From NCBI GenBank assembly GCA_000004695.1, contig CM000154.2:4128001-4192000 (forward strand): a DNA stretch of 64,000 bases, in the 5' to 3' direction. Both the position numbers and the translations under genes were made by a program. Every line of letters starts with the position of its first letter. Position 1 is the first letter of the stretch. Under the pieces are notes generated by a model. It worked only from the letters and a program-made list of their open reading frames with translations. It was not told the origin of the DNA and did no database searches. This DNA is from Dictyostelium discoideum (Eukaryota). Below are positions 433-18,775 of the stretch, one piece after another.

Positions 433-1371
433 ATTCTTCCATTTTTTTTTCATTTTTTGAGAAATTATAATTAAATCACGATTTTTAACACTCCCTTTTT
501 TTTTATTTTTTTTATATTAATTTTTAGTTTAGAAAATATTTCAAGTGCATCCCAATTCAATTTTAGCACTTTCTTTATCATTTCAGATGGTATTTATTAA
601 TAACTACTATAAATATTCATTAACTTTACTTTGAGAATATTTAACTAACTTTTTTTTTTTTTTTATTTTATTTTTAATTTTAAAATAATTTTAATTATAT
701 ATTTTATTTTTATTTTTTAAAAATCAGATGACGATGGTATGTGATTAGGCTTTACAAAATATTTTAATTGTAATAATCAATTTTATTATAATTTGTTTTT
801 TTTTTTAATTTTTATTATTTTTGTTGTAAATAAAAAAAAATAAAAAAAATAAAAATTTTTATCTCTGTGTTTATGTTCTAAAATAATATTTATATTGATA
901 AGGCTCTTAATTAATAAAGTTTGATAATAATAATATAGGATCATAAAAATCAAAAAAAAAAAAAAAGAAATAAACAAAGAAGAAGAAAACAAGTAAGAAA
1001 ATGGAAAACAAAAAAAAAAATAAAAAAAAAAAAATAAAAAAAATATATTTAAACAATTAATTGTTTACCTACAGTTTCAATTATTTATTAAAAAAAAAAA
1101 AAAGTTTAAATTACTGGTTACACTTTTCAATATTGTGCACCAAGGTAAGAAACTGGTTGATTTTTTAAATATTTGTTTAAAAAAAAAAGGTTGGAAATAA
1201 AAAATTAAATTCTTTTTTTTTTTTTGGAAAAAAAAAAAATTAAAATATTAGGATATTAAAAAGTTGGATTATTTATTATTTAATACAGTTTTTTTTTTTT
1301 TTTTTGTTGATTACTTTTTTTTTTTTTTTTGATCGGTTTTATTTTTTATTATTTTTGATTAATTATTAATT

Positions 1372-4300
1372 TTATAAACTTGGACCTGAAGAATCACTAT
1401 TTGAATCTAAATCATCTTGGAATAAAGAAGAAACTGTTCTAGATTCATTTGTCCAAGCACGAGGTAAAACAGGTGAATAGGAAACACGATTAACTCTACT
1501 AAATCTTTTACTTCTTAAAGTTGATTTACCATCACCAATATAAGACATACTTGGTGAATCTGGTGGTGTTGGAATTGGACTTGGATTACTTGAACTTTTA
1601 CCAGATGAAGAATTTGAAGAGTTTGAAGTAGTATTATTATTACTATTGTTGTTGTTTAATTGACCACTTGAAGAATGATTAGATAATGGAATACCAGCAA
1701 AATTTGATAATGATCCACCCATTGATGGTGGTCTTTTAATTGGTGAAGCTGATGGTCTAGATGGCATAGTATTATGATGTGGTGTAACATTATTTGGTAG
1801 TGGTGGAGTATTAGAACTGACACCATTATTATTTGAAATTGGTCTCTTTGAAGTCATTGGACCAACGGTGTGAGCTCTTTCATGATTTGGTGATCTTGAA
1901 ACTTCAACAGTAGTATGTAAAACATTATCAATTGATTTGGTGGGAGTGGTAGATGGTGAAATTGGTGAACTTAGAGAAGTGGCTACTAAATTATTGTTGT
2001 TGGTTGTGCAAGTTGATTGAGTTGAATCGGTATCAGCATCACCACTATTATCACTTGAAATTGGTTTATTCTCTGGGTCAAATATATCGAAATAATTTAC
2101 AATCATAAAGGAATTAATTGGTAATAGTTCAGAGGCGAATGATCTGAAAAAGGTAGGAGCCCAACAAATTGCGATATTCTCTGGTGACATCATATTTACA
2201 TCCTTTTCCAAAGAGATTAAATGTAAGAGATGGAAAAGCTTCTTTATCATTTTACATTCTAAAGGTGAGAGTTGATCTATAATATCTTTGAGTGATTGTA
2301 TTATCTCTTCATTGGATGACTGTCTCATTGCTTGGAAGAAATATTCATGTAGATTTTCAGGGAAAATTGGATTTGGTAATTCACGGAAATAACTCTTTAA
2401 TACACCTGCCACTGTATCGACATCAACATTTTCTGCTTTTAGGTCAATATCTTCACCTGCTTCAAATCTAGTTTTAATTTTCTTCAATGCGGTTGCAGAT
2501 GCACAAGTTCTGAAAATACCAACAGATGAAATACCTTGTTCCATTAATAGATCGATCGAACGAGATACAAGTGGTGGTAACTCAATGGTGGAAGCATTGA
2601 TTTGAGCTTTATCAGTTAGGGTTACAGCACCACCAGTAGCACGACCAGGATATAATGGTCCCCTTGTTGGTCTTTTTGGTAAAGTTTGAAAGCCAGGATT
2701 TGAACTTTTAGTTGGTGTTGATGGTGGTCCAATTGGTGGTTTTTTAATAACACCAGCCAACGAACCGATTGAAGGTTGTTTTGTTGGAGTTAAACCACCA
2801 GAACTTGTATCGATTGGATGAATATTATTTGGATAATTGATTACGATTGAAGTTTGAATATCTTGAATTGTTTTTAAAATCTTTTCATGAGAACTACCAT
2901 TACTATCATTCTTTAAGATGGTTGAAATATCACTTAATGGTAATTGTAAGATGGTGAGTGATTTCTCGTTACGTCTAATTGAGCATTTAATCATTTTCAA
3001 AGCGGTATAAGAGAAATCATTACCATCGCATTTCAATGATTTCAAAGTTTGATTCTTCCAAAGGATTTTCGAGACAGCCAAAGCACCACTATCACCAACA
3101 CCATTTCCAGAGATATCAAGTTTGACCAATGATTGATTCTTTAGCAATGATAATAACAATGGCATTAAATCGCCCTTCAATTGATATTTACCACTACCAC
3201 TTGCCAATGAAAGTGATTCGATGGATGTATTATCATCGATCAAGTTTATCAATGCCTCTATTGCACGTGCTCTAAGTTTTGATTTTGTTTTAAAGTTACC
3301 ATCGATTGAAAGATGATGAAGATTTGAATTTGGATACATAATTTCACAAAGTTTAATGATACCACCATCACCAAGATCATTCTCTGATAAATCTACACTT
3401 GAACATTTCAATAATGATGTTGCAGGACTAAACAATAGTTTCAAATCATCTGGAGTGGTTTGAATTCTTGATAAATTTACAGTTTGTAAGTGTGACATTT
3501 GTTTGAAAAATGATAAGATATCAATTACACTCTCTTTGGTTGTAGTTGATTTATTACCACTAAAATCCAAAGTTTGAATCGATGATGATGATGTCTTTAA
3601 AAAACTATAAACTGGACTTGTATTACTCATTAATAATTGTTGTAATGCCGTTGCTTTCGATAAGAATTTACATAAACCATTTGTACCATAACTTTCTAAT
3701 TTATTGTTTGAAATATTCAAATGAGTCATTGATCCACATACTACATTATTCGCTGTTAAACATCCAAACATTGCCTCTAATCCTTTACCAGAACATGATG
3801 TATTTTCAATATTTAAATATGTTAATCCATTTGAAAATGTTTGAATACTTGATCCTAATGTTAAAATACCTTTATTCTTTTTTCATCATAATCATCATAA
3901 TCATCATTATTTATTATTATATTTTTTTATTATTGAAAGTTAATAAATTTATAAATTATAAAAACAATTTGTTTAATAAACAAAATTAACTTACTTCTAA
4001 TGAATTATTATTTAAATTAATATGTGATAAATGAAGAGCTTTATTTTCAGCAACATTTTGAAGTAAAGTTATTATTGGTTCTTTTGAAGCTTGACTATTT
4101 GTAATTGTTAATTGTTGTAGTGAGGAATTCTCTTTGAATACTTCTGCTAATAGGTTTAGATCTTCGTTTGATAATTTACCATTGGATTGAAATGATTGAA
4201 AGTATGTATTATAGGAGAGTGATAAAAGTATTGCTTTTAGATCTGTGAATGAGTATTGATAGATTTCCGCTAAATTAAATTCTCTAACTTGATTGAATGG

Positions 4301-4916
4301 ATATAGATTTTCGATATCCCAAAGTATTGATGATAATGGTTGTACACCTAAATGATCACAAACTGATCGATATGTAAGATTGAATGATCCACAACCTTGA
4401 ATATCTTTAAATGAGGTGGCTTGAAATATCGATGGTATTCTACTAGCTGGTGTAATGTTAAAAATAATGGTTTTACCAATTTTAATACCAGGAAATGTTG
4501 ACATTAATGTACCATACAATGTCTTCAATACCTCTGATGCATCTAAATTCATCTTCATAACATTTTGATTCTTAAATTTTATTGTAACATCATTCTCTGA
4601 TTGACTTGCTATCTCTGTAATTTCTAAATAATGATGTTCTGCTGATAACTAGTTATATAAATATATAAAAAAAAATAAAATAAAAAAACTATTATTATTA
4701 TCTATTGTTTTGAAAAAGTAAATGAATATGAATAACTGAGTGTACACTTACTTTTCCTTTTGAATCTGTAAATAAAAATATTCTATTACTTGATAAAATT
4801 AACGTTTTAATCTCTAACTTCTTTTTTTTTTCATTTAATATTGTAACTTTTGTAATTAATTTACCCTCTTCTTTTTTATTTGTTAAAATTGATTCAATAG
4901 TTTCTAAAGAAAACAA
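1372..4916 (-). CDS. RhoGAP-domain protein with an N-terminal PH-like module and ribonuclease-inhibitor-type leucine-rich repeats (~1107 aa)
   Basis: Three exons on the minus strand: 4916..4752, 4648..3995 and 3876..1372. Both donors are GTAAGT (plus-strand acttac at 4746-4751 and 3989-3994); the acceptors are AG at 4650/4649 and 3878/3877; introns are 103 and 118 nt. Phases are consistent (exon 1 is 55 codons, exon 2 is 218 codons). RhoGAP signature: GIFRTCASATALKKIKTRFEAGEDIDL...VAGVLKSYFRELPNPIFP...MMSPENIAICWAPTFFRS. LRR units such as LDISGNGVGDSGALAVSKIL. The N-terminal MFSLETIESILTNKKEEGKL...RIFLFTDSKGK is PH-like, as in CARMIL-type proteins. Confidence 0.85.
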
Positions 4917-6019
4917 AAAAAAAAAACAAATTAATAAAAGAAGATAATTTAAAAATTTTTTAAAAAATTTTTAAAAAATAATTGTTCAGAATGTTTTTGT
5001 TTTTTTTTATTATTGTATTTTATTTATTTTTTATAATTACTTTTTTCAACTTGTGATAGGGAAACAGGTGTTGTCATTGTTTTATTTGCACTTTTTTCTT
5101 TTTGTTTTTTTTTTTTGTTTTTGTTTTTTTTTGTAATAATAAATAAATAATAAATAAATAAATAAATAAATAAATAATGAATAAATAAAATACAATATTA
5201 ATAAATACAAGATTAATAAATAAATATTATGTTACAGGTTTTTTTTTTTTTTTTATTTTTTTTTTTTTTTTATTTTTTCAAATGGTTATTGATAATTATT
5301 TGAATTAATTTTTTTTTTTAAAATCAATTTTTTTTTTTTTTATTTTTTTTTAATTTTATTTTTTTTTTTTATTTTATTTTATTTTTTTAAATTAATTTTC
5401 AAAAAAAAAAATTTTTTTTGGGGGAGCGCTTCTTGATTATTATCATAAAAATGGTTTAAAAAATATTTCTTTATTTTGAAAAATGTTTTTTGACCTTATA
5501 TTAATTGTGTTTTTTTTGAAAATTGTGTGAATATTTTTGGTGTTGTGTAAACTTTTTTAATTAATTTTTTATTTTTTATTTTATTTTTATTTTTTTTTTT
5601 TTGTCAAAGCATTTTTATTTTTGGGGGGTTTAAGATTATATCTTTTTTTATATCGAAAAAAAAAAAAAAAAATTGTGATCATAAAATCAATGGTTTGAAA
5701 AAATTTAATTATTTTTTTATTTTTTTTTATTTTTAAATTATAAAGTTGCTTTTACCAATGTTGATTGAAGAAATTATCATTGTAATTATTTTATTTTTTT
5801 TAAATGATGAATATATGAATTTAAATCAGTTAACCAAAAAGGGTATTTTTTTTTTTTATTTTCACGACGAAATTTTAACAAAAAATAAAAATTCAGGTCG
5901 GAAAATTTATTGAATATTTGGGATTTTTTTTTTGTTTTATCGTATTTTTTTTTTATTTTTTTTTATTTTTTTTTTGTTTTTCTACCCAAAATACGAGAAA
6001 TTTTTACCAAAAAAAAAAA

Positions 6020-7372
<1,353 letters not shown>

Positions 7373-7497
7373 TAGTTAAATAAAGTTAAAAAGTTATATA
7401 AAACTAAATTCAAAAATTTCTTTTTTTTATTTAATAAATGTGTGTATTTATTTGAAGCACAACATTTTTTATTAAAGTTTATAAATTTTTTTTTTTT

Positions 7498-10443
7498 TTA
7501 CTCATCATTTCCACCATTTTCTTCTTGGTTAGTGTTTTCATCACCACCTTGATTATTTTCATCACCACCTTGGTCATTTTCATTTCCTTGATTATTTTCA
7601 TCACCACCTTGATTATTTTCATCATTGCCTTGATTATTTTCACCACCATCTTGATCTTGGTTATTTTCATCACCACCTTGATTATTTTCATTATTGCCTT
7701 GATTATTTTCACTACCATCTTGATCTTGGTTATTTTCGCCACCATCTTGATTATTTTCACCACCATCTTGGTTATTTTCATCACCTTGATTATTTTCACC
7801 ATCACCATCTTGGTTATTTTCATCACCCCCTTGGTTATTTTGGTCACCATCTTGGTTATTTTCATCATTACCTTGATTATTTTCATCACCGTCTTGGTTA
7901 TTTTCATCACCGTCTTGGTTATTTTCATCACCATCTTGGTTATTATTTTCATCACCGTCTTGGTTATTATTTTCATCGTCACCTTGGTTATTATTTTCAT
8001 CACCCTCTTGGTTATTTTCATCACCGTCTTGGTTTTGTTCACCATCTTGGTTATTATTTTCATCACCATCTTGATTGTTTTCACCATCTTGATTATTTTC
8101 ACCACCATCTTGATTATTATTTTCATCACCATCTTGATTGTTTTCACCACCATCTTGATTATTTTCACCACCATCTTGATTATTATTTTCATCACCATCT
8201 TGATTATTATTTTCATCACCATCTTGATTGTTTTCACCACCATCTTGGTTATTTTCATCACCGTCTTGGTTTTGTTCACCATCTTGGTTATTATTTTCAT
8301 CACCATCTTGATTGTTTTCACCATCTTGATTATTTTCTCCATCTTGATTGTTTTCATCACCATCTTGGTTATTTTCACCATCTTGATTGTTTTCATCAAC
8401 ATCTTGGTTATTTTCATCACCTTGGTTATTTTCACCACCATCTTGGTTATCTTCACCACCATCTTGGTTATCTTCACCACCATCTTGGTTATCTTCACCA
8501 CCTTCTTGATTATTTTCACCACCATCTTGGTTATCTTCACCACCATCTTGGTTATTTTCACCACCATCTTGGTTATTTTCACCACCATCTTGGTTATTTT
8601 CACCATCTTGATTGTTTTCACCATCTTGATTATTTTCACCACCATCTTGGTTATTTTCGCCATTTTGATTATTTTCACCATCTTGATTGTTTTCACCACC
8701 ATCTTGGTTATTTTCATCACCATCTTGGTTGTTTTCACCACCATCTTGATTATTTTCACCACTATCTTGATTATTTTCACCACTATCTTGGTTGTTTTCA
8801 TCACCATCTTGATTGTTTTCACCACCATCTTGGTTATTTTCACCATCTTGGTTATTTTCACCATCATCTTGATTATTTTCACCACCATCTTGATTATTTT
8901 CACCACCATCTTGTTTATTTTCACCATCATCTTGATTGTTTTCACCACCATCTTGGTTATTTTCGCCATCTTGATTATTTTCACCACCATCTTGATTATT
9001 TTCACCACCATCTTGATTATTTTCACCATCTCGATTGTTTTCNNNNNNNNNNNNNNNNNNNNNNNNNNNNNNNNNNNNNNNNNNNNNNNNNNNNNNNNNN
9101 NNNNNNNNNNNNNNNNNNNNNNNNNNNNNNNNNNNNNNNNNNTCTTGGTTGTTTTCTCCATCTTGGTTGTTTTCTCCATCTTGATTATTTTCACCACCAT
9201 CTTGGTTATTTTCACCACCATCTTGGTTGTTTTCACCACCATCTTGATTATTTTCACCACCATCTTGGTTATTTTCACCACCATCTTGATTATTTTCACC
9301 ACCATCTTGATTATTTTCACCACTATCTTGGTTGTTTTCACCACCATCTTGGTTGTTTTCACCGTCTTGGTTATTTCCATGACCATCTTGGTTGTTTTCA
9401 CCACCATCTTGGTTGTTTTCACCACCATCTTGATTATTTTGATCACCTTGATTATTTTCACCACCTTGATTGTTTTCATCACCTTGATTATTTTCACCAC
9501 CTTGATTGTTTTCATCACCATTTTGATTGTTTTCACCATCTTGGTTATTTTCACCACCTTGATTATTTTCACCACCTTGATTGTTTTCATCCCTATTTTG
9601 ATTTTTGTTTTGGTCATCACCAGCTTGATTATTATTATTATTATTATTACTTTGATTATTATTTTCATCTTTTTTTGGTTCTTGTTTTTTAGGAATAATA
9701 CCAACTGATTGTGCAAAATTACTAATACCTGATCCGACAGCTTCAACACCCTCGTCAGCCAATTTACCACTTCCACCTCCAATTTTTTCCATTGTATCTG
9801 AGAAAATGGCACCTCCTGTAACAATCCTAATAGGGTTAAGAGCATCTGCAACTTTTCCACTTCCACCTCCCACTGTTTCAAAAATACCTGGTTTATCATT
9901 GGTATTGGTTGATGTTTTGGTTGGTGTTGTTGTGGAAGTGGTGGTAGTAGTAGTTGTTGGTTTTGGTGTTGTAGTTGTAGTTGTAGTTGTAGTTGGTGTT
10001 GGTGTTGGTGTTGGTGTTGGTGTTGGTGTTGGTGTTGGTGTTGGTGTTGCTTGAGGATCACCTGGGTTTGAACCAAATTGCTTTCTCTCATCATCAGTTA
10101 CTATAAATTTTTTATAATTATTATTTTTATTATTATTATTAGTAAATCTGATATATTTTGGATTATAATTATTATTTTTTAAAATATATTATAAAAATAC
10201 AAACATTTATAGGTATTATAAAACTTATCATCATTTGAAATTTTATCTTCAGTTTGTTTAATTTCTTTTTGAATATTTTCCAATTCGGCATTTCTCAAAT
10301 TTTCTTTTACACTTGGAACAATAGCGTTAAATACCGAACCAACCAAACCTCCAGAATTACTATGCCCATGATTTTTAACATCATCATATTTTTTCTTTAA
10401 TTCTGCAATTTTTTTATTATCCTCATCATCTAATATTATTAAA

Positions 10444-10510
<67 letters not shown>

Positions 10511-10566
10511 TTATTATTATTTTTTTATTTTTTTATTTTTTATTTTTTTTTAAAAAAAAAAAAAAA

Positions 10567-10601
<35 letters not shown>

Positions 10602-11131
10602 ATATACGTACGATTTGGTGGCAAACCTCCATTTGCAGCAGTTTTAGTAAAACCAAGAACTTCTTTAATATCTTCCATTTTTTTTTTATTCTCTTCTATT
10701 GTGTCTTCATCAACATGTTTAGGATTATGAATTATATCATTTTCCTCGAAGGGTTTCATAACTTCTTTGAATTCTTTAACATTTTTTTCCAAATTTTTAT
10801 TTTCTTCAACAAGTCTTTTATATTCAGAGATATCACCACTTTGTCTTTTTTCAATATCAGTTATTCTTGAATTTGTTTTATCCAATAAATTTTGAAATAT
10901 TTTTTTTTCATTGTCAGTTTTTGCATTTTTGACTGAATTTGAATAAGTTTGTTTTTCATTGGTCAATCCAATCATTTCTTTTCTATCCTTTTGATTTTGA
11001 ACCATTCTATCATTTCTATCTTTAGTTTCTTTTTGTCTTTTTTCTTGTATTTCTCTATTTTTATTATTTTCTTCTATGGCATGTGTAACTGAAGGAACAA
11101 TTGCTTTTGCAACTGCATCAAATATTGTCAT
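7498..11131 (-). CDS. Asn/Gln/Asp/Glu-rich tandem-repeat protein: coiled-coil-like charged N-terminus, Thr/Pro linker, two GGGSGK(V/L)AD motifs, then ~100 GGENNQD heptads
   Basis: Exon 1 is 11131..10612 (MTIFDAVAKAIVPSVTHAIEENNKNREIQEKRQKETKDR...GGLPPN), ending with donor GTACGT. A probable internal exon ~10429..10205 is in frame and paralogous to exon 1 (…SVFNAIVPSVKENLRNAELENIQKEIKQTEDKISNDDKFYNTYK). A large 3' exon starts after the AG at 10102/10101 (…TDDERKQFGSNPGDPQATPTPTPTP…TTTTTT…PGIFETVGGGSGKVADALNPIRIVTGGAIFSDTMEKIGGGSGKLADEG…), then the 21-bp repeat array continues to the stop at 7498. The frame is continuous with ORF 7498..9873, which begins at an alternative (GTG) codon, so the ORF extends further 5'. 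The K-rich overlapping frame 7479..10094 is rejected. Splice phases are consistent with or without the internal exon. Confidence 0.6.
7540..9620. repeat. near-perfect 21-bp tandem repeat array, ~95-100 units of consensus (minus strand) GGTGGTGAAAATAACCAAGAT encoding the GGENNQD heptad
   Basis: Plus-strand unit ttttcaccaccatcttggtta repeated head-to-tail with only point variants (caccatc/caccacc, ggtt/gatt). All three frames on both strands are open across it, which is why the tool reports the 7479..10094, 7498..9873 and 7525..9708 ORFs. Confidence 0.9.
9043..9142. other. assembly gap (100 N) inside the 21-bp repeat array
   Basis: Run of exactly 100 n characters flanked by repeat units; the true number of repeat units is unknown. 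Confidence 0.95.
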
Positions 11132-11229
11132 TTTTTAATAAAATAATAAAATAATAAGAATAGATTATTTATTAAAGTAATACAATTATTAACTTTAAAA
11201 TAACTTTTTTTTTTTTTATTTTATTTTAT

Positions 11230-11266
<37 letters not shown>

Positions 11267-11289
11267 ATAATAATAATAATAATTTAAAA

Positions 11290-11480
11290 TTAAAACTAAA
11301 TAAATTTTATATACTCTTTAATAATTAATATTGGAAGGTTTAATTTAAAAATAAATAAACCTTTCATATCTCCTCAGTTTTTTATAAAAATAACAACAAT
11401 AAAAATTGAGATAGCACAACCCAAAATTTATCTGTTTTGAAACTTTTTTTTAAAAAAAAAAAATAATATCATCATAATTG
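11290..11480. repeat. dispersed duplicated segment, copy 1 (about 80% identical to 12410..12600)
   Basis: aattaatattggaaggtttaatttaaaaataaataaacctttcatatctcctcagttttttataaaaataacaacaataaaaattgag…cccaaaatttatctgttttgaaac matches aattaatatttgaaggtttaaaataataaacctctcaaatcttctcatttctttataaaaataacaacaataaatttgttgg…ccccaaattaatctgttttggaac. Confidence 0.6.
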
Positions 11481-12127
11481 TTATCAAACTGTTTTTTTAT
11501 TTTATAATCTGTTGTTTTTTTTTTATATTAAAAATAAGAAATAAAAAATAAAAATAAAAAAAATATAAAAAAAAAATATATGGTGATATGATATAATTTT
11601 ATATACAAGTATAAACTATAAAAGGAAAAAGTAGAGGCTAAACTATTTAGTTGAAACTATTTAATAAATGCCATACAAATATTTGTGTTTTTTTTTATTT
11701 TTTATTTTTTTTATTTTTTATTTTTTTTATTTTTTATTTTTTTTATTTTTTTTTTCTTTTATCGATGAAAATATGAATTATGAATTTTAATTAGTTTACC
11801 AAAAAGGGAATTTTTTTTTTTTATTTTTTTTATATTTTAATGAAGAAAAAATTGGTATTTGTTTAAATAAACCATTGAATAAATAGGTTGTAGAAAAAAA
11901 TAAAAAAATATGAAAAAAAAAAAATCAACAACCAATAATTATAACCACAACCAATAACAACCAACAAACACAACAGCCGCCAATTGGGAAGAATAGTAAT
12001 GGTAATAGAAGTAATAGAAATAGCGTTAATTAGTAACAACAACTAATAATAACTACATCCAATAACAGCCAACAAACACAATAGCCGCCACTAATTCTAT
12101 TTACAATATAATCAAATCGAACAAACA

Positions 12128-12319
12128 ATGGAAATGTGTTGTTTTCACCACCATCTTGATTGTTCTCATCATCTTGGTTATTGTTTTCACCATCTTGATT
12201 GTTCTCATCATCTTGGTTATTTCTTCATCTTTATTATCTTCTTCATCTTGATTATTTTCATCACCATCTTGATTATCTTCACCACCATCTTGGTTATTTT
12301 CACAAAAAAAAAAAAATAA
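12128..12319 (-). pseudogene. decayed short copy (~8 units) of the GGENNQD 21-bp repeat
   Basis: ttttcaccaccatcttgattgttctcatcatcttggttattgttttcaccatcttgatt… in the same orientation as the main array. It sits next to a ~190-bp copy (12410..12600) of the segment found upstream of the parent gene (11290..11480). Confidence 0.5.
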
Positions 12320-12409
12320 ATAAAAAAAAATTAAAAAAATTAAAAAAAATAATAATAATTATTATAATTAAAGGTTAATAAAAAATGACAACAAATTAAA
12401 CTTTAACAT

Positions 12410-12600
12410 TCTTCAACAATTAATATTTGAAGGTTTAAAATAATAAACCTCTCAAATCTTCTCATTTCTTTATAAAAATAACAACAATAAATTTGTTGGC
12501 ATTAATTTTATAAAACCCCAAATTAATCTGTTTTGGAACTTTATTTTTTTTTTTTTATTTTTTATTTTTTTAATAATAATATAATTGTTATATGTGAAAA
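12410..12600. repeat. dispersed duplicated segment, copy 2
   Basis: See copy 1. It lies 5' (in minus orientation) of the repeat fragment at 12128..12319, reproducing the order promoter-like segment then repeats seen in the parent gene. Confidence 0.6.
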
Positions 12601-12855
12601 GTAAAAAATTGTGTTGAAAAAATAAAAAAACAATGCTACCCATACAAATCCAAAACACCTTTTTTTCAACACAATGTTTTTTGATTATGCCATTATTCCA
12701 ACAAATCTGTTTGTTTTTTTTTTTTTTTTTTTTTTTCTTAAAAATAGAAATAAAAAAAAAAAGAATTAAAGAAAATATAGAAAAATGAAATAATTTAATA
12801 TAAACCAAAGATCACAATTGAAAATTAAAATTTGCACGGCATTTATTTCTAACCG

Positions 12856-12900
<45 letters not shown>

Positions 12901-12983
12901 TTATTTTTTAATTTTTATTTTTTTTTATTTTTTTTTTTATTTTTTTTATTTTTTGGTAATTTTGATTCCTGGGTCAAAAAAAG

Positions 12984-15263
<2,280 letters not shown>

Positions 15264-18072: not shown

Positions 18073-18271
18073 TTAAATATCGGAACCAAATGTATTTTCA
18101 CCGCTATAGCAAATATATAAAAAGCCATCTTCATCTTTATGAGCGTCATATATTGAGGATAAAAGTTGACTTGATGGTGGTAAGTTATTCTTATTTACAA
18201 ATAAAAAAATTGCCTTTTGTTCATTATGATCGGAATCATCTAAATGTTTTCTAATTTCCATTATAAAATTC

Positions 18272-18317
<46 letters not shown>

Positions 18318-18775
18318 TAATTGGTTAGTATCCTACTTTTTTTTTTTTTTTTTTCCTATTGTACATACAGTTATGACCATATTTGATGGTGCAAGGAATT
18401 TCTTTTTATTAATATCTGGTACATCACTATTTGCAGCTCTTTCGACAATAATCTAAAAAAAAAAAAAAATAATAAAAAAAAAAATAAATAATAAAAAACA
18501 ATTAGACTATTTTGAAATTTAAAATTTAAAAATAATTTATAAATAATAATAATAATACACATACTGGTAATCTATCCTTATATCTATTTCTAATTTTTGA
18601 TGATATTAATTTTCTTTTTTCTGTTACAATAAAAAAAAAAAAAAAAAAAATGTATTAGTGTGTGGGAAATTTTTTTGGGTGGATAATAATAATAATAATA
18701 AAAAAAAAAATAGAAAAAAAAAAAATACATACCAAGAGAGTACTCTTGTTTGAATGATTTTGAAAGTAAGGCCAT
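18073..18775 (-). CDS. atg8: Atg8/GABARAP/LC3-family ubiquitin-like autophagy protein (126 aa, 4 exons)
   Basis: Exons 18775..18733, 18620..18565, 18452..18369 and 18270..18073. Donors are GTATGT x3; acceptors are acAG, tttAG and aatAG. Spliced product: [126 protein letters not shown]. It aligns to the Atg8 consensus (FEKRK…RIPVIVEKAE…KYLVP…KAIFLFVN…LPP…[15 protein letters not shown]) with the scissile Gly followed by 3 residues. It is divergent, possibly the atg8b-type paralog. Confidence 0.9.

Follow-up and report, generated by a model that had tools for sequence, protein, structure and literature searches.

A probable three-exon gene for a species-restricted acidic repeat protein in Dictyostelium discoideum AX4

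Results

The stretch of AX4 chromosome 5 singled out in a preliminary description of this DNA is probably the ordinary 5′ end of a three-exon gene on the minus strand (11131..7498), in which the middle exon is used constitutively and whose product, 1235 aa once an assembly gap is filled, would reside in the cytosol or nucleus. Its product is an acidic repeat protein, mostly disordered and restricted to the species. Positions are those of the window, by which we mean the whole 64 kb of DNA analyzed, and the features of the gene are listed here.

11131..11129, minus strand: start codon ATG; a TAA in the same frame lies two codons before it
10612..11131, minus strand: exon 1, 520 nt (173 codons plus 1 nt), ending in phase 1; start codon and charged helical region
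11087..11104, minus strand: first AIVPSV motif (residues 10–15), near the start of the first long helix
10430..10611, minus strand: intron 1, 182 nt, GTACGT...TTAG, GC 2%, rich in (AAT)n, stops in all frames
10205..10429, minus strand: exon 2, 225 nt (75 codons), phase 1/1; helix, Gly-rich loop, and long helix from the second motif
10308..10325, minus strand: second AIVPSV motif, which starts the long helix of exon 2
10101..10204, minus strand: intron 2, 104 nt, GTTTGT...ATAG, GC 8%
7498..10100, minus strand: exon 3; Thr/Pro tract, two GGGSGK repeats, and long ENNQDGG-type acidic repeat; stop codon at 7500..7498
9898..10047, minus strand: (TP)n and poly-Thr tract, 49 residues, 88% Thr plus Pro
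9691..9870, minus strand: two 30-residue Gly-rich repeats starting GGGSGK(V/L)AD, a direct-repeat family
9043..9142, no strand: assembly gap of 100 N, inside the repeat

We verified splice sites and phases manually and by script, and all coordinates in the preliminary description proved correct. Intron 1 has its donor (GTACGT) at 10611 and its acceptor (ttAG) at 10431/10430; the donor of intron 2 (GTTTGT) lies at 10204 and its acceptor (atAG) at 10102/10101, with stops in all frames between them. Two introns of the GT-AG class, short (182 and 104 nt) and extremely rich in AT, are spliced out, and GC content is 26% in the exons and 2–8% in the introns. As had been proposed, the frame is kept with or without exon 2, yielding 1115 aa (as read from the window, including X residues from the N gap) or 1040 aa, respectively. 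As exon 2 lacks an in-frame Met and exon 3 has none before residue 347, the start is supplied by exon 1. Splice phases, a continuous coding frame, and the gene predicted at this locus in GCA_054883475.1, a D. discoideum assembly free of gaps, bear out the earlier proposal that exon 1, the open segment at 10429..10205, and the repeat ORF are one gene. In that assembly the 5′ part of the locus is identical, exon 1 included, and the single gene called there spans 3994 nt with a product of 1235 aa. This call is a prediction, compared with our model by length only, and it corresponds to exons of 520, 225, and 2963 nt after removal of introns 1 and 2 at their AX4 lengths (182 and 104 nt). Other ORFs of the window were exact matches to AX4 XP_635616.1 (CP55), DDB_G0290495, and DDB_G0290497, and a literature search on the AIVPSV motif, the assembly accession, and the neighboring DDB_G identifiers located only atg8b.

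In a diverged isolate (GCA_054859355.1), which differs here by about 11% at the nucleotide level, the gene occurs as three tandem copies; AX4 has one gene copy and a relic. The closest relative of the AX4 gene is copy g2; copy g3 is probably decaying, and its two A-run frameshifts may reflect a pseudogene or an assembly error. Intron 1 is indel-rich between copies, and intron 2 is 97% identical to the g2 intron. In exon 1, codons 1–114 have a dN/dS of about 0.9, and part of the N-terminal region is therefore under weak constraint. We see next to no chance that exon 1 is a separate small gene, namely the 193-aa read-through ORF 11131..10550, with the repeat ORF independent of it. Such an ORF does exist, and g3 is called as two genes of 120 aa and 1135 aa; however, the split in g3 stems from a 1-nt deletion in an A run that breaks the frame, not from a different architecture, and the tail of the read-through ORF, RTYIYLFIYLFIYLFIFFFF, is translated intron repeat. 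Moreover, ∼100 clearly coding codons of the repeat ORF lie upstream of Met347 without an in-frame ATG, and the calls for g2 and for the locus in the gap-free assembly are single genes of a length consistent with three exons.

The preliminary description had treated the internal segment at 10429..10205 as coding, and this is upheld by a codon usage like that of exon 1, a GC content of 26%, and conservation of its length, frame, and splice sites. Codon-usage log-odds, trained on 11 other ORFs of the window, were positive in one continuous frame throughout the three exons: +0.67 bits/codon in exon 1, +0.72 in the second, and between +0.8 and +1.4 in the third. The predicted frame of exon 2 contains no stops in 75 codons, and the other two frames scored −0.7 and −1.75 bits/codon. 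Within exon 3, the ENNQDGG frame scored +1.2 to +1.4 bits/codon and the alternative open frame about −1.0; an alternative ORF at 10094..7479 (MMRESNLV...) was considered as the true frame and discarded on its negative codon usage. The g2 and g3 versions of exon 2 both measure exactly 225 nt, lack indels, stay in frame, and share the AG acceptor and the GTTTGT donor; the dN/dS of the AX4 exon is 0.26 against g2 (7 synonymous and 9 non-synonymous differences) and 0.43 against g3. All this identifies the 225-nt segment as a normal coding exon. It is scarcely credible that 10429..10205 is instead purely intronic, part of a single 511-nt intron (10611..10101) with an open frame that is a chance occurrence or a decaying relic. 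A 10612^10100 splice would indeed stay in frame, but that reading leaves unexplained a GC content well above the 2–8% of the flanking introns, 75 open codons at +0.72 bits/codon in AT-rich DNA, an indel-free length of exactly 225 nt in all three gene copies beside an indel-rich intron 1, the dN/dS of 0.26, and the conservation of both internal splice sites. An intron of 511 nt would also be long for this genome, in which the mean intron length is reportedly about 146 nt.

Whether this coding exon is optional is a different matter. It had been suggested to be alternatively spliced, in which case it would be a cassette giving isoforms of 1235 and 1160 aa with two or one AIVPSV module(s), respectively. 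Its 225 nt are flanked by phase 1 on both sides, so that the frame survives skipping, and a motif of exon 1 recurs within it. The usual D. discoideum donor consensus is GTAAGT; the donors of exon 2 (GTTTGT, matching at 4 of 6 positions) and exon 1 (GTACGT) both depart from it. Given the symmetric phase and the off-consensus GTTTGT donor, some skipping of exon 2 is mechanically possible. However, about one third of internal exons are phase-symmetric by chance, so symmetry is necessary for a cassette exon but not diagnostic of one. Exon 2 bears the full signatures of coding sequence, with length, frame, and splice sites kept in two other gene copies, and it is more conserved than its neighbor (88% protein identity to g2, as compared to 75–76% for exon 1) at a dN/dS of 0.26. 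The length of the public gene call in the gap-free assembly, 1235 aa, is that of the exon-2-included form. Amoebozoans are reported to skip exons comparatively little (PMC6142364), and the SR proteins of D. discoideum number only two (PMC3173450). We consider a cassette exon quite unlikely and infer that exon 2 is used constitutively.

The motif that had suggested a duplication is indeed repeated, AIVPSV having exactly two matches in a six-frame translation of the 64 kb window. The two copies are encoded differently (gca att gtt cct tca gtt in copy 1 and gct att gtt cca agt gta in copy 2). By BLASTP, exons 1 and 2 share 18 identities in 43 positions, and their Smith-Waterman score of 61, against 37.5±6.2 for composition-preserving shuffles, was reached by 15 of 5000 shuffles; alignments span 34–43 residues, with two gaps. 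An exact shared 6-mer or longer appeared in 51 of 20000 shuffles, and profile-profile alignment (hhalign) gave P = 0.007 at a probability of only 5%. Any homology of the whole modules beyond the motif, as judged from these alignments (P about 0.003–0.007), would thus be marginal. Of the two helical modules originally described, the shared motif and the predicted helices stand, and the “duplicated exon module” is not supported: only ∼10–12 residues are convincingly shared, and outside these both modules are charged low-complexity helix.

The motif reads AIVPGV in both modules of g2, and VISPGT (copy 1) and AFAPKL (copy 2) in g3. Its fifth position is therefore Ser twice in AX4 (TCA, AGT) and Gly twice in g2 (GGA, GGT), a parallel change that is not gene conversion because the codons differ. 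One could imagine that the AIVP(S/G)V motifs at the helix starts form a coupled pair, through mutual packing or a common partner, and that occasional skipping of exon 2 alters their copy number, but we regard this as unlikely. As a low-confidence reading, the two copies probably trace back to a short internal duplication of some age that selection has maintained, and not to an exon duplicated recently. A wider motif, V[AF]xA[IL]xP, covering both AIVPSV copies and the first GGGSGK repeat, has three matches in the window, all in this gene; it was rejected because it was defined post hoc and is lost in g2, which has VADVFNP.

The Thr/Pro tract reported downstream of the exon 1 and exon 2 modules is present (10047..9898), and its length differs between gene copies (21 gap columns). 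Its description as a probable O-glycosylated stalk found no support, as a hydropathy scan revealed no signal-peptide-like or transmembrane-like segment. In this 19-residue Kyte-Doolittle scan, which is not a dedicated signal predictor, the maximum mean was 1.24, at an N-terminus containing Asp5 and Lys9, and elsewhere values were at most 0.95; entry into the secretory pathway is therefore not expected. That the protein is secreted or on the surface, with the tract forming an O-glycosylated stalk of the mucin type like those of PsA and the spore-germination cellulases, is in our view very unlikely. In its favor are the 49 residues that are 88% Thr plus Pro, and several proteins secreted by Dictyostelium carry O-glycans on comparable tracts. 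On the other hand, D. discoideum proteins in general often carry simple-sequence runs of Thr and Pro, the N-terminus MTIFDAVAKAIVPSV averages only 1.24 and is broken by Asp and Lys, and exon 1 has no room for a longer N-terminus, since a stop codon in frame closely precedes the ATG. The N-terminus of g3, MNVLKVISPGT, is still less hydrophobic, and the remaining protein is charged helix and acidic Cys-free repeat. The tract is most likely a plain spacer rather than a mucin stalk, and it would act as a flexible, low-complexity one; the protein itself would be cytosolic or nuclear.

Both GGGSGK repeats are where they had been placed, starting at 9870 and 9780, 30 codons apart, and the pair was also detected as a 46-nt direct repeat of 74% identity (repeat family D12). 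The Gly-rich repeats have 92% protein identity to g2 and g3 and a dN/dS of 0.33. They are followed by a tail that, when the gap is filled, comprises 843 aa with 263 Asp plus Glu and 4 Lys plus Arg; the repeat of the gene contains 94 ENNQ units. In the gap-free assembly, the gap at 9043..9142 corresponds to 460 nt of further ENNQDGG repeats and holds no extra gene copy. A scan of 1.8 billion proteins with exon 1 found no homologue outside the D. discoideum group. A first homologue search was swamped by the Thr/Pro tract, and searches omitting the tract or using a three-sequence alignment returned no relatives but missed proteins known to be in the collection, and so are uninformative.

Single-sequence AlphaFold2 predicted helices at residues 3–69, 73–130, and 142–159 of exon 1 (pLDDT 81) and at residues 2–19 and 29–73 of exon 2 (pLDDT 80). 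No domain was matched in Pfam, and a profile search against the PDB gave nothing at E≤1. Foldseek against the PDB returned only generic helical hairpins, none below E = 0.46, and the top matches were hairpins of the ESCRT-III Snf7/CHMP, PspA/Vipp1, and F-BAR type. Membrane-seeking amphipathic helices at the motifs were considered and rejected, as the hydrophobic moments (0.37 and 0.50) are outside the surface-seeking range.

Discussion

These findings matter little beyond annotation quality: they confirm a three-exon model for an uncharacterized D. discoideum gene, correct two over-readings, one of a duplicated exon as optional and one of the Thr/Pro tract as a mucin stalk, and show that the gap in the AX4 assembly conceals 460 nt of repeat only, without an extra gene copy. 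The gene illustrates, in a small way, an orphan that evolves fast and amplifies in tandem. Were the twin motifs to form a co-evolving, interacting pair, they would be of modest interest for research on disordered and repeat proteins in social amoebae.

In this model, the first part of the protein consists of ∼250 residues of charged helices whose sole hydrophobic patches are the two xAIVP(S/G)V segments near the starts of the long helices, and the protein ends, beyond the spacer and the Gly-rich pair, in a ∼840-residue polyanionic, disordered tail, acidic and rich in Asn, Gln, and Gly, built of ENNQDGG-like units. We suggest, with low confidence, that the N-terminal helical hairpin or coiled coil is a part that serves folding, self-association, or partner binding, with the motif patches as contact surfaces.

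Several known systems invite comparison. Like ESCRT-III Snf7/CHMP, PspA/Vipp1, and F-BAR proteins, this protein is predicted to have two long antiparallel helices and has a short hydrophobic N-terminal stretch. Unlike a true member of these families, it shows no significant structural match (best E 0.46, TM 0.3–0.4, rmsd 9–30 Å) and no sequence or profile match to them, and the resemblance is that expected of any long helical hairpin. The Thr/Pro tract matches the PsA spacer and the TETP repeats of CelA/CelB in composition and length; those proteins, however, have signal peptides or GPI anchors, and the present one is without a detectable signal or membrane segment.

Exon 2 resembles the duplication-derived cassette exons of animals in being phase-symmetric, in having a length divisible by 3, and in sharing a motif with the neighboring exon. 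It differs from them in that the similarity covers ∼10–12 residues and is not exon-wide, in that the exons compared are of 520 and 225 nt, and in that it occurs in a group with little exon skipping (PMC6142364). The motif codons also differ at 6 of 18 positions, including Ser as TCA and AGT, and the event was therefore neither recent nor a clean copy of an exon.

There is also a likeness to the lineage-restricted simple-sequence proteins with Asn, Gln, Thr, and Gly tracts that are said to be abundant in D. discoideum. With these the gene shares an extremely AT-rich coding sequence, long tandem amino-acid repeats, a Thr/Pro tract, copy number and repeat length that vary between isolates, and the lack of a Pfam domain. 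It departs from purely low-complexity proteins in possessing a structured-looking helical N-terminus with a twice-repeated, conserved hydrophobic motif, and a pair of Gly-rich repeats conserved at a dN/dS of 0.33.

Gene structure and coding status

With the minus strand read and the exons assembled by script, all coordinates of the preliminary description proved correct; the interpretation built on them is supported only in part. The features of the gene are as follows.

Features of the gene in the window
11131, minus strand: start ATG, with an A-run and an in-frame TAA two codons upstream as its 5' neighbours
11131..10612, minus strand: exon 1, 520 nt, ending in phase 1; donor GTACGT
between exons 1 and 2: intron 1, 182 nt
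10429..10205, minus strand: exon 2, 225 nt; AG acceptor at 10431/10430, GTTTGT directly after
10101-10204: intron 2, 104 nt
10100 to the stop at 7498, minus strand: exon 3; AG acceptor at 10102/10101
10047..9898, minus strand: Thr/Pro tract, 88% T+P, its length differing between gene copies
9870 and 9780, minus strand: starts of the GGGSGK repeats

The exons have a GC content of 26%, as against 2% in intron 1 and 8% in intron 2. By a codon-usage log-odds score, with 11 further long ORFs from the window as training set, all three pieces scored positively in their predicted frames with 0 stops (+0.67 bits/codon for exon 1, +0.72 for the 225-nt segment and +0.8 to +1.4 for exon 3); the remaining frames of the 225-nt segment scored -0.7 and -1.75, and both introns had stops in every frame. 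Because neither exon 2 nor exon 3 contains an in-frame Met before residue 347, the start must come from exon 1, which makes the three pieces one gene. Two other ORFs were rejected by codon usage: one running from 10094 (MMRESNLV...; minus strand, 7479-10094, 871 aa), whose score of about -1.0 identifies it as an artefact of the stop-free repeat, and a plus-strand ORF through the repeat (7525-9708, 727 aa). In sum, the locus is an ordinary orphan gene of three exons, called before, and its middle exon looks constitutive.

A gap-free D. discoideum assembly, GCA_054883475.1, which was found via the neighbouring 450-aa protein, is identical to the window in the 5' part of the locus, and in place of the 100-N gap at 9043..9142, inside the ENNQDGG repeat, it carries 460 nt of extra in-frame repeat units. 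Because this filling is in frame, the real protein is 1235 aa rather than 1115 aa, the length that the window gives. The predicted gene call in that assembly (3994 nt span, 1235 aa) matches, by length only, exons 1, 2 and 3 minus introns of 182 and 104 nt.

Elsewhere in the window, ORFs exactly match the AX4 proteins CP55 (XP_635616.1; 45965-47377), DDB_G0290495 and DDB_G0290497, and a four-exon ATG8 homologue at 18085-18775 (minus strand) matches the published atg8b (DDB_G0290491, PMC8204557). CP55 and atg8b together place the window on chromosome 5 of AX4.

Tandem copies and mosaicism

When exon 1 was scanned against 1.84 billion representative proteins, the matches were one true relative (P0008, 75% identity) and three unrelated repeat proteins; no homologue of exon 1 outside the D. 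discoideum group was detectable in this library. P0008 comes from GCA_054859355.1, an isolate syntenic with the window at ∼11% nucleotide divergence here, in which the gene is present as three tandem copies, as against a single copy and a relic in AX4.

Tandem copies in locus L001 of the diverged isolate (JBTAPG010000020.1, 1-14146)
up to 2551: g1, only partly covered, as it runs off the end of the locus
4916-9142: g2, predicted as a gene of 1332 aa, a length that also fits three exons
10001-14146: g3, called as two genes

Two A-runs of g3 (near 10332 and 11387 of L001) carry 1-nt changes that break the frame, so this is either a decaying copy or pseudogene, or the product of homopolymer assembly errors. 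GCA_054859355.1 bears the label Dictyostelium discoideum (KAM9975145.1, locus tag ACTFIW_008623); at ∼89% nucleotide identity to AX4 over 8 kb (L001 against window 1289-12800), it seems, on this locus, too diverged to be the same species as AX4. A separate 'Dictyostelium cf. discoideum' assembly exists (locus tags ACTFIY).

In a site-pattern test, AX4 grouped with g2 across the upstream region, exon 1, intron 1, exon 2 and intron 2, with the exception of exon 1 codons 115-144 (10700-10789, 90 nt), where it agreed with g3 at 25 sites versus 4. This suggests that the gene is a mosaic produced by gene conversion or recombination among tandem copies. Between AX4 and g2, intron 2 shows 3 differences in 101 nt (97% identity), and the adjacent synonymous sites of exon 2 differ by ∼17%; the high intron identity could stem from a recent conversion tract, from small numbers or from a sequence space confined to A and T.

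A frameshifted ENNQDGG fragment without an ATG lies some 1 kb upstream of the gene (12138-12308, minus strand; associated sequence at 12317-12556 and 12069-12127). Before it stands a copy of the upstream element of the gene itself (11349-11403 versus 12437-12491, 87% identical), and after it comes sequence that matches the 3' flank of g1. The fragment appears to be what remains of a second tandem copy, mostly deleted in AX4.

The AIVPSV motif

In the six-frame translation of the window, AIVPSV has just two occurrences, at 11104..11087 and 10325..10308. BLASTP aligned 43 residues of exons 1 and 2 at 42% identity with two gaps; the local alignment score of 61 (37.5 ± 6.2 when shuffled) was reached in 15 of 5000 composition-preserving shuffles, and an exact common hexapeptide or longer arose in 51 of 20000. 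With profiles built from the three gene copies, hhalign gave P = 0.007 at a probability of only 5%. We read the short motif and its immediate flanks as a real repeat. Duplication of a whole exon module, as had been proposed, is not demonstrated, the exons being 520 and 225 nt long and the rest of what they share being charged, low-complexity helix. Since 6 of 18 nt differ between the two copies of the motif (Ser, for instance, is TCA in one and AGT in the other), any duplication would be old.

Residue 5 of the motif is Ser in both AX4 copies and Gly in both g2 copies (L001 4946-4963 and about 5676-5693), giving AIVPSV twice versus AIVPGV twice. As the codons involved differ (TCA/GGA and AGT/GGT), gene conversion is not the cause. 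The g3 motifs have both drifted and read VISPGT and AFAPKL. The pattern hints at a functional coupling of the two copies, a reading that rests on three sequences, too few to call co-evolution, and that is weakened by the patchy exchange among tandem copies.

Predicted protein

Single-sequence AlphaFold2 predicted helices at 3-69, 73-130 and 142-159 of exon 1 (pLDDT 81), and a helix at 2-19, a Gly-rich loop and a helix at 29-73 of exon 2 (pLDDT 80). In both, a long helix begins close to the motif, and by hydropathy the motif sites are the sole hydrophobic patches. Searches of Pfam, PDB profiles and, by Foldseek, the PDB (best E 0.46) returned only generic helical hairpins. In a tentative model, the N-terminal helical module would serve assembly or binding, with the two motif patches as contact surfaces; after it would come a spacer, two conserved Gly-rich repeats and a long polyanionic disordered tail (843 residues, 263 D+E versus 4 K+R).

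The Thr/Pro tract is present as described, but its interpretation as a probable O-glycosylated stalk is not favoured, because such a stalk would need secretory entry and none is indicated: a 19-residue Kyte-Doolittle scan showed no signal peptide or membrane anchor (highest window mean, 1.24). A flexible low-complexity spacer, within a protein that is cytosolic or nuclear, is the most plausible reading of the tract.

Constraint on exon 2 and exon skipping

The preliminary description suggested that exon 2 is alternatively spliced, and the reading frame is indeed unbroken whether the 225-nt segment is included or skipped. This phase symmetry and the non-consensus donors are the sole points in favour of a cassette exon under regulated skipping, and symmetric phase occurs by chance in about one third of internal exons. 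Exon 2 keeps its length of exactly 225 nt in both g2 and g3, free of indels and with unchanged splice sites, unlike intron 1, which is indel-rich between copies. Between AX4 and g2, dN/dS (Nei-Gojobori) is 0.26 for exon 2 (7 synonymous and 9 non-synonymous differences), 0.33 for the GGGSGK region and about 0.9 for exon 1 codons 1-114; protein identity is 88% for exon 2 and 75-76% for exon 1. If anything, exon 2 thus appears better constrained than exon 1. This conservation argues against regulated skipping, as do the lengths of the predicted gene calls, which fit inclusion of exon 2, and we regard such skipping as quite improbable. What is reported for the wider group and the species points the same way: amoebozoans were comparatively low in exon skipping in a 65-species survey (PMC6142364), and the SR proteins of D. 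discoideum number only two (PMC3173450).
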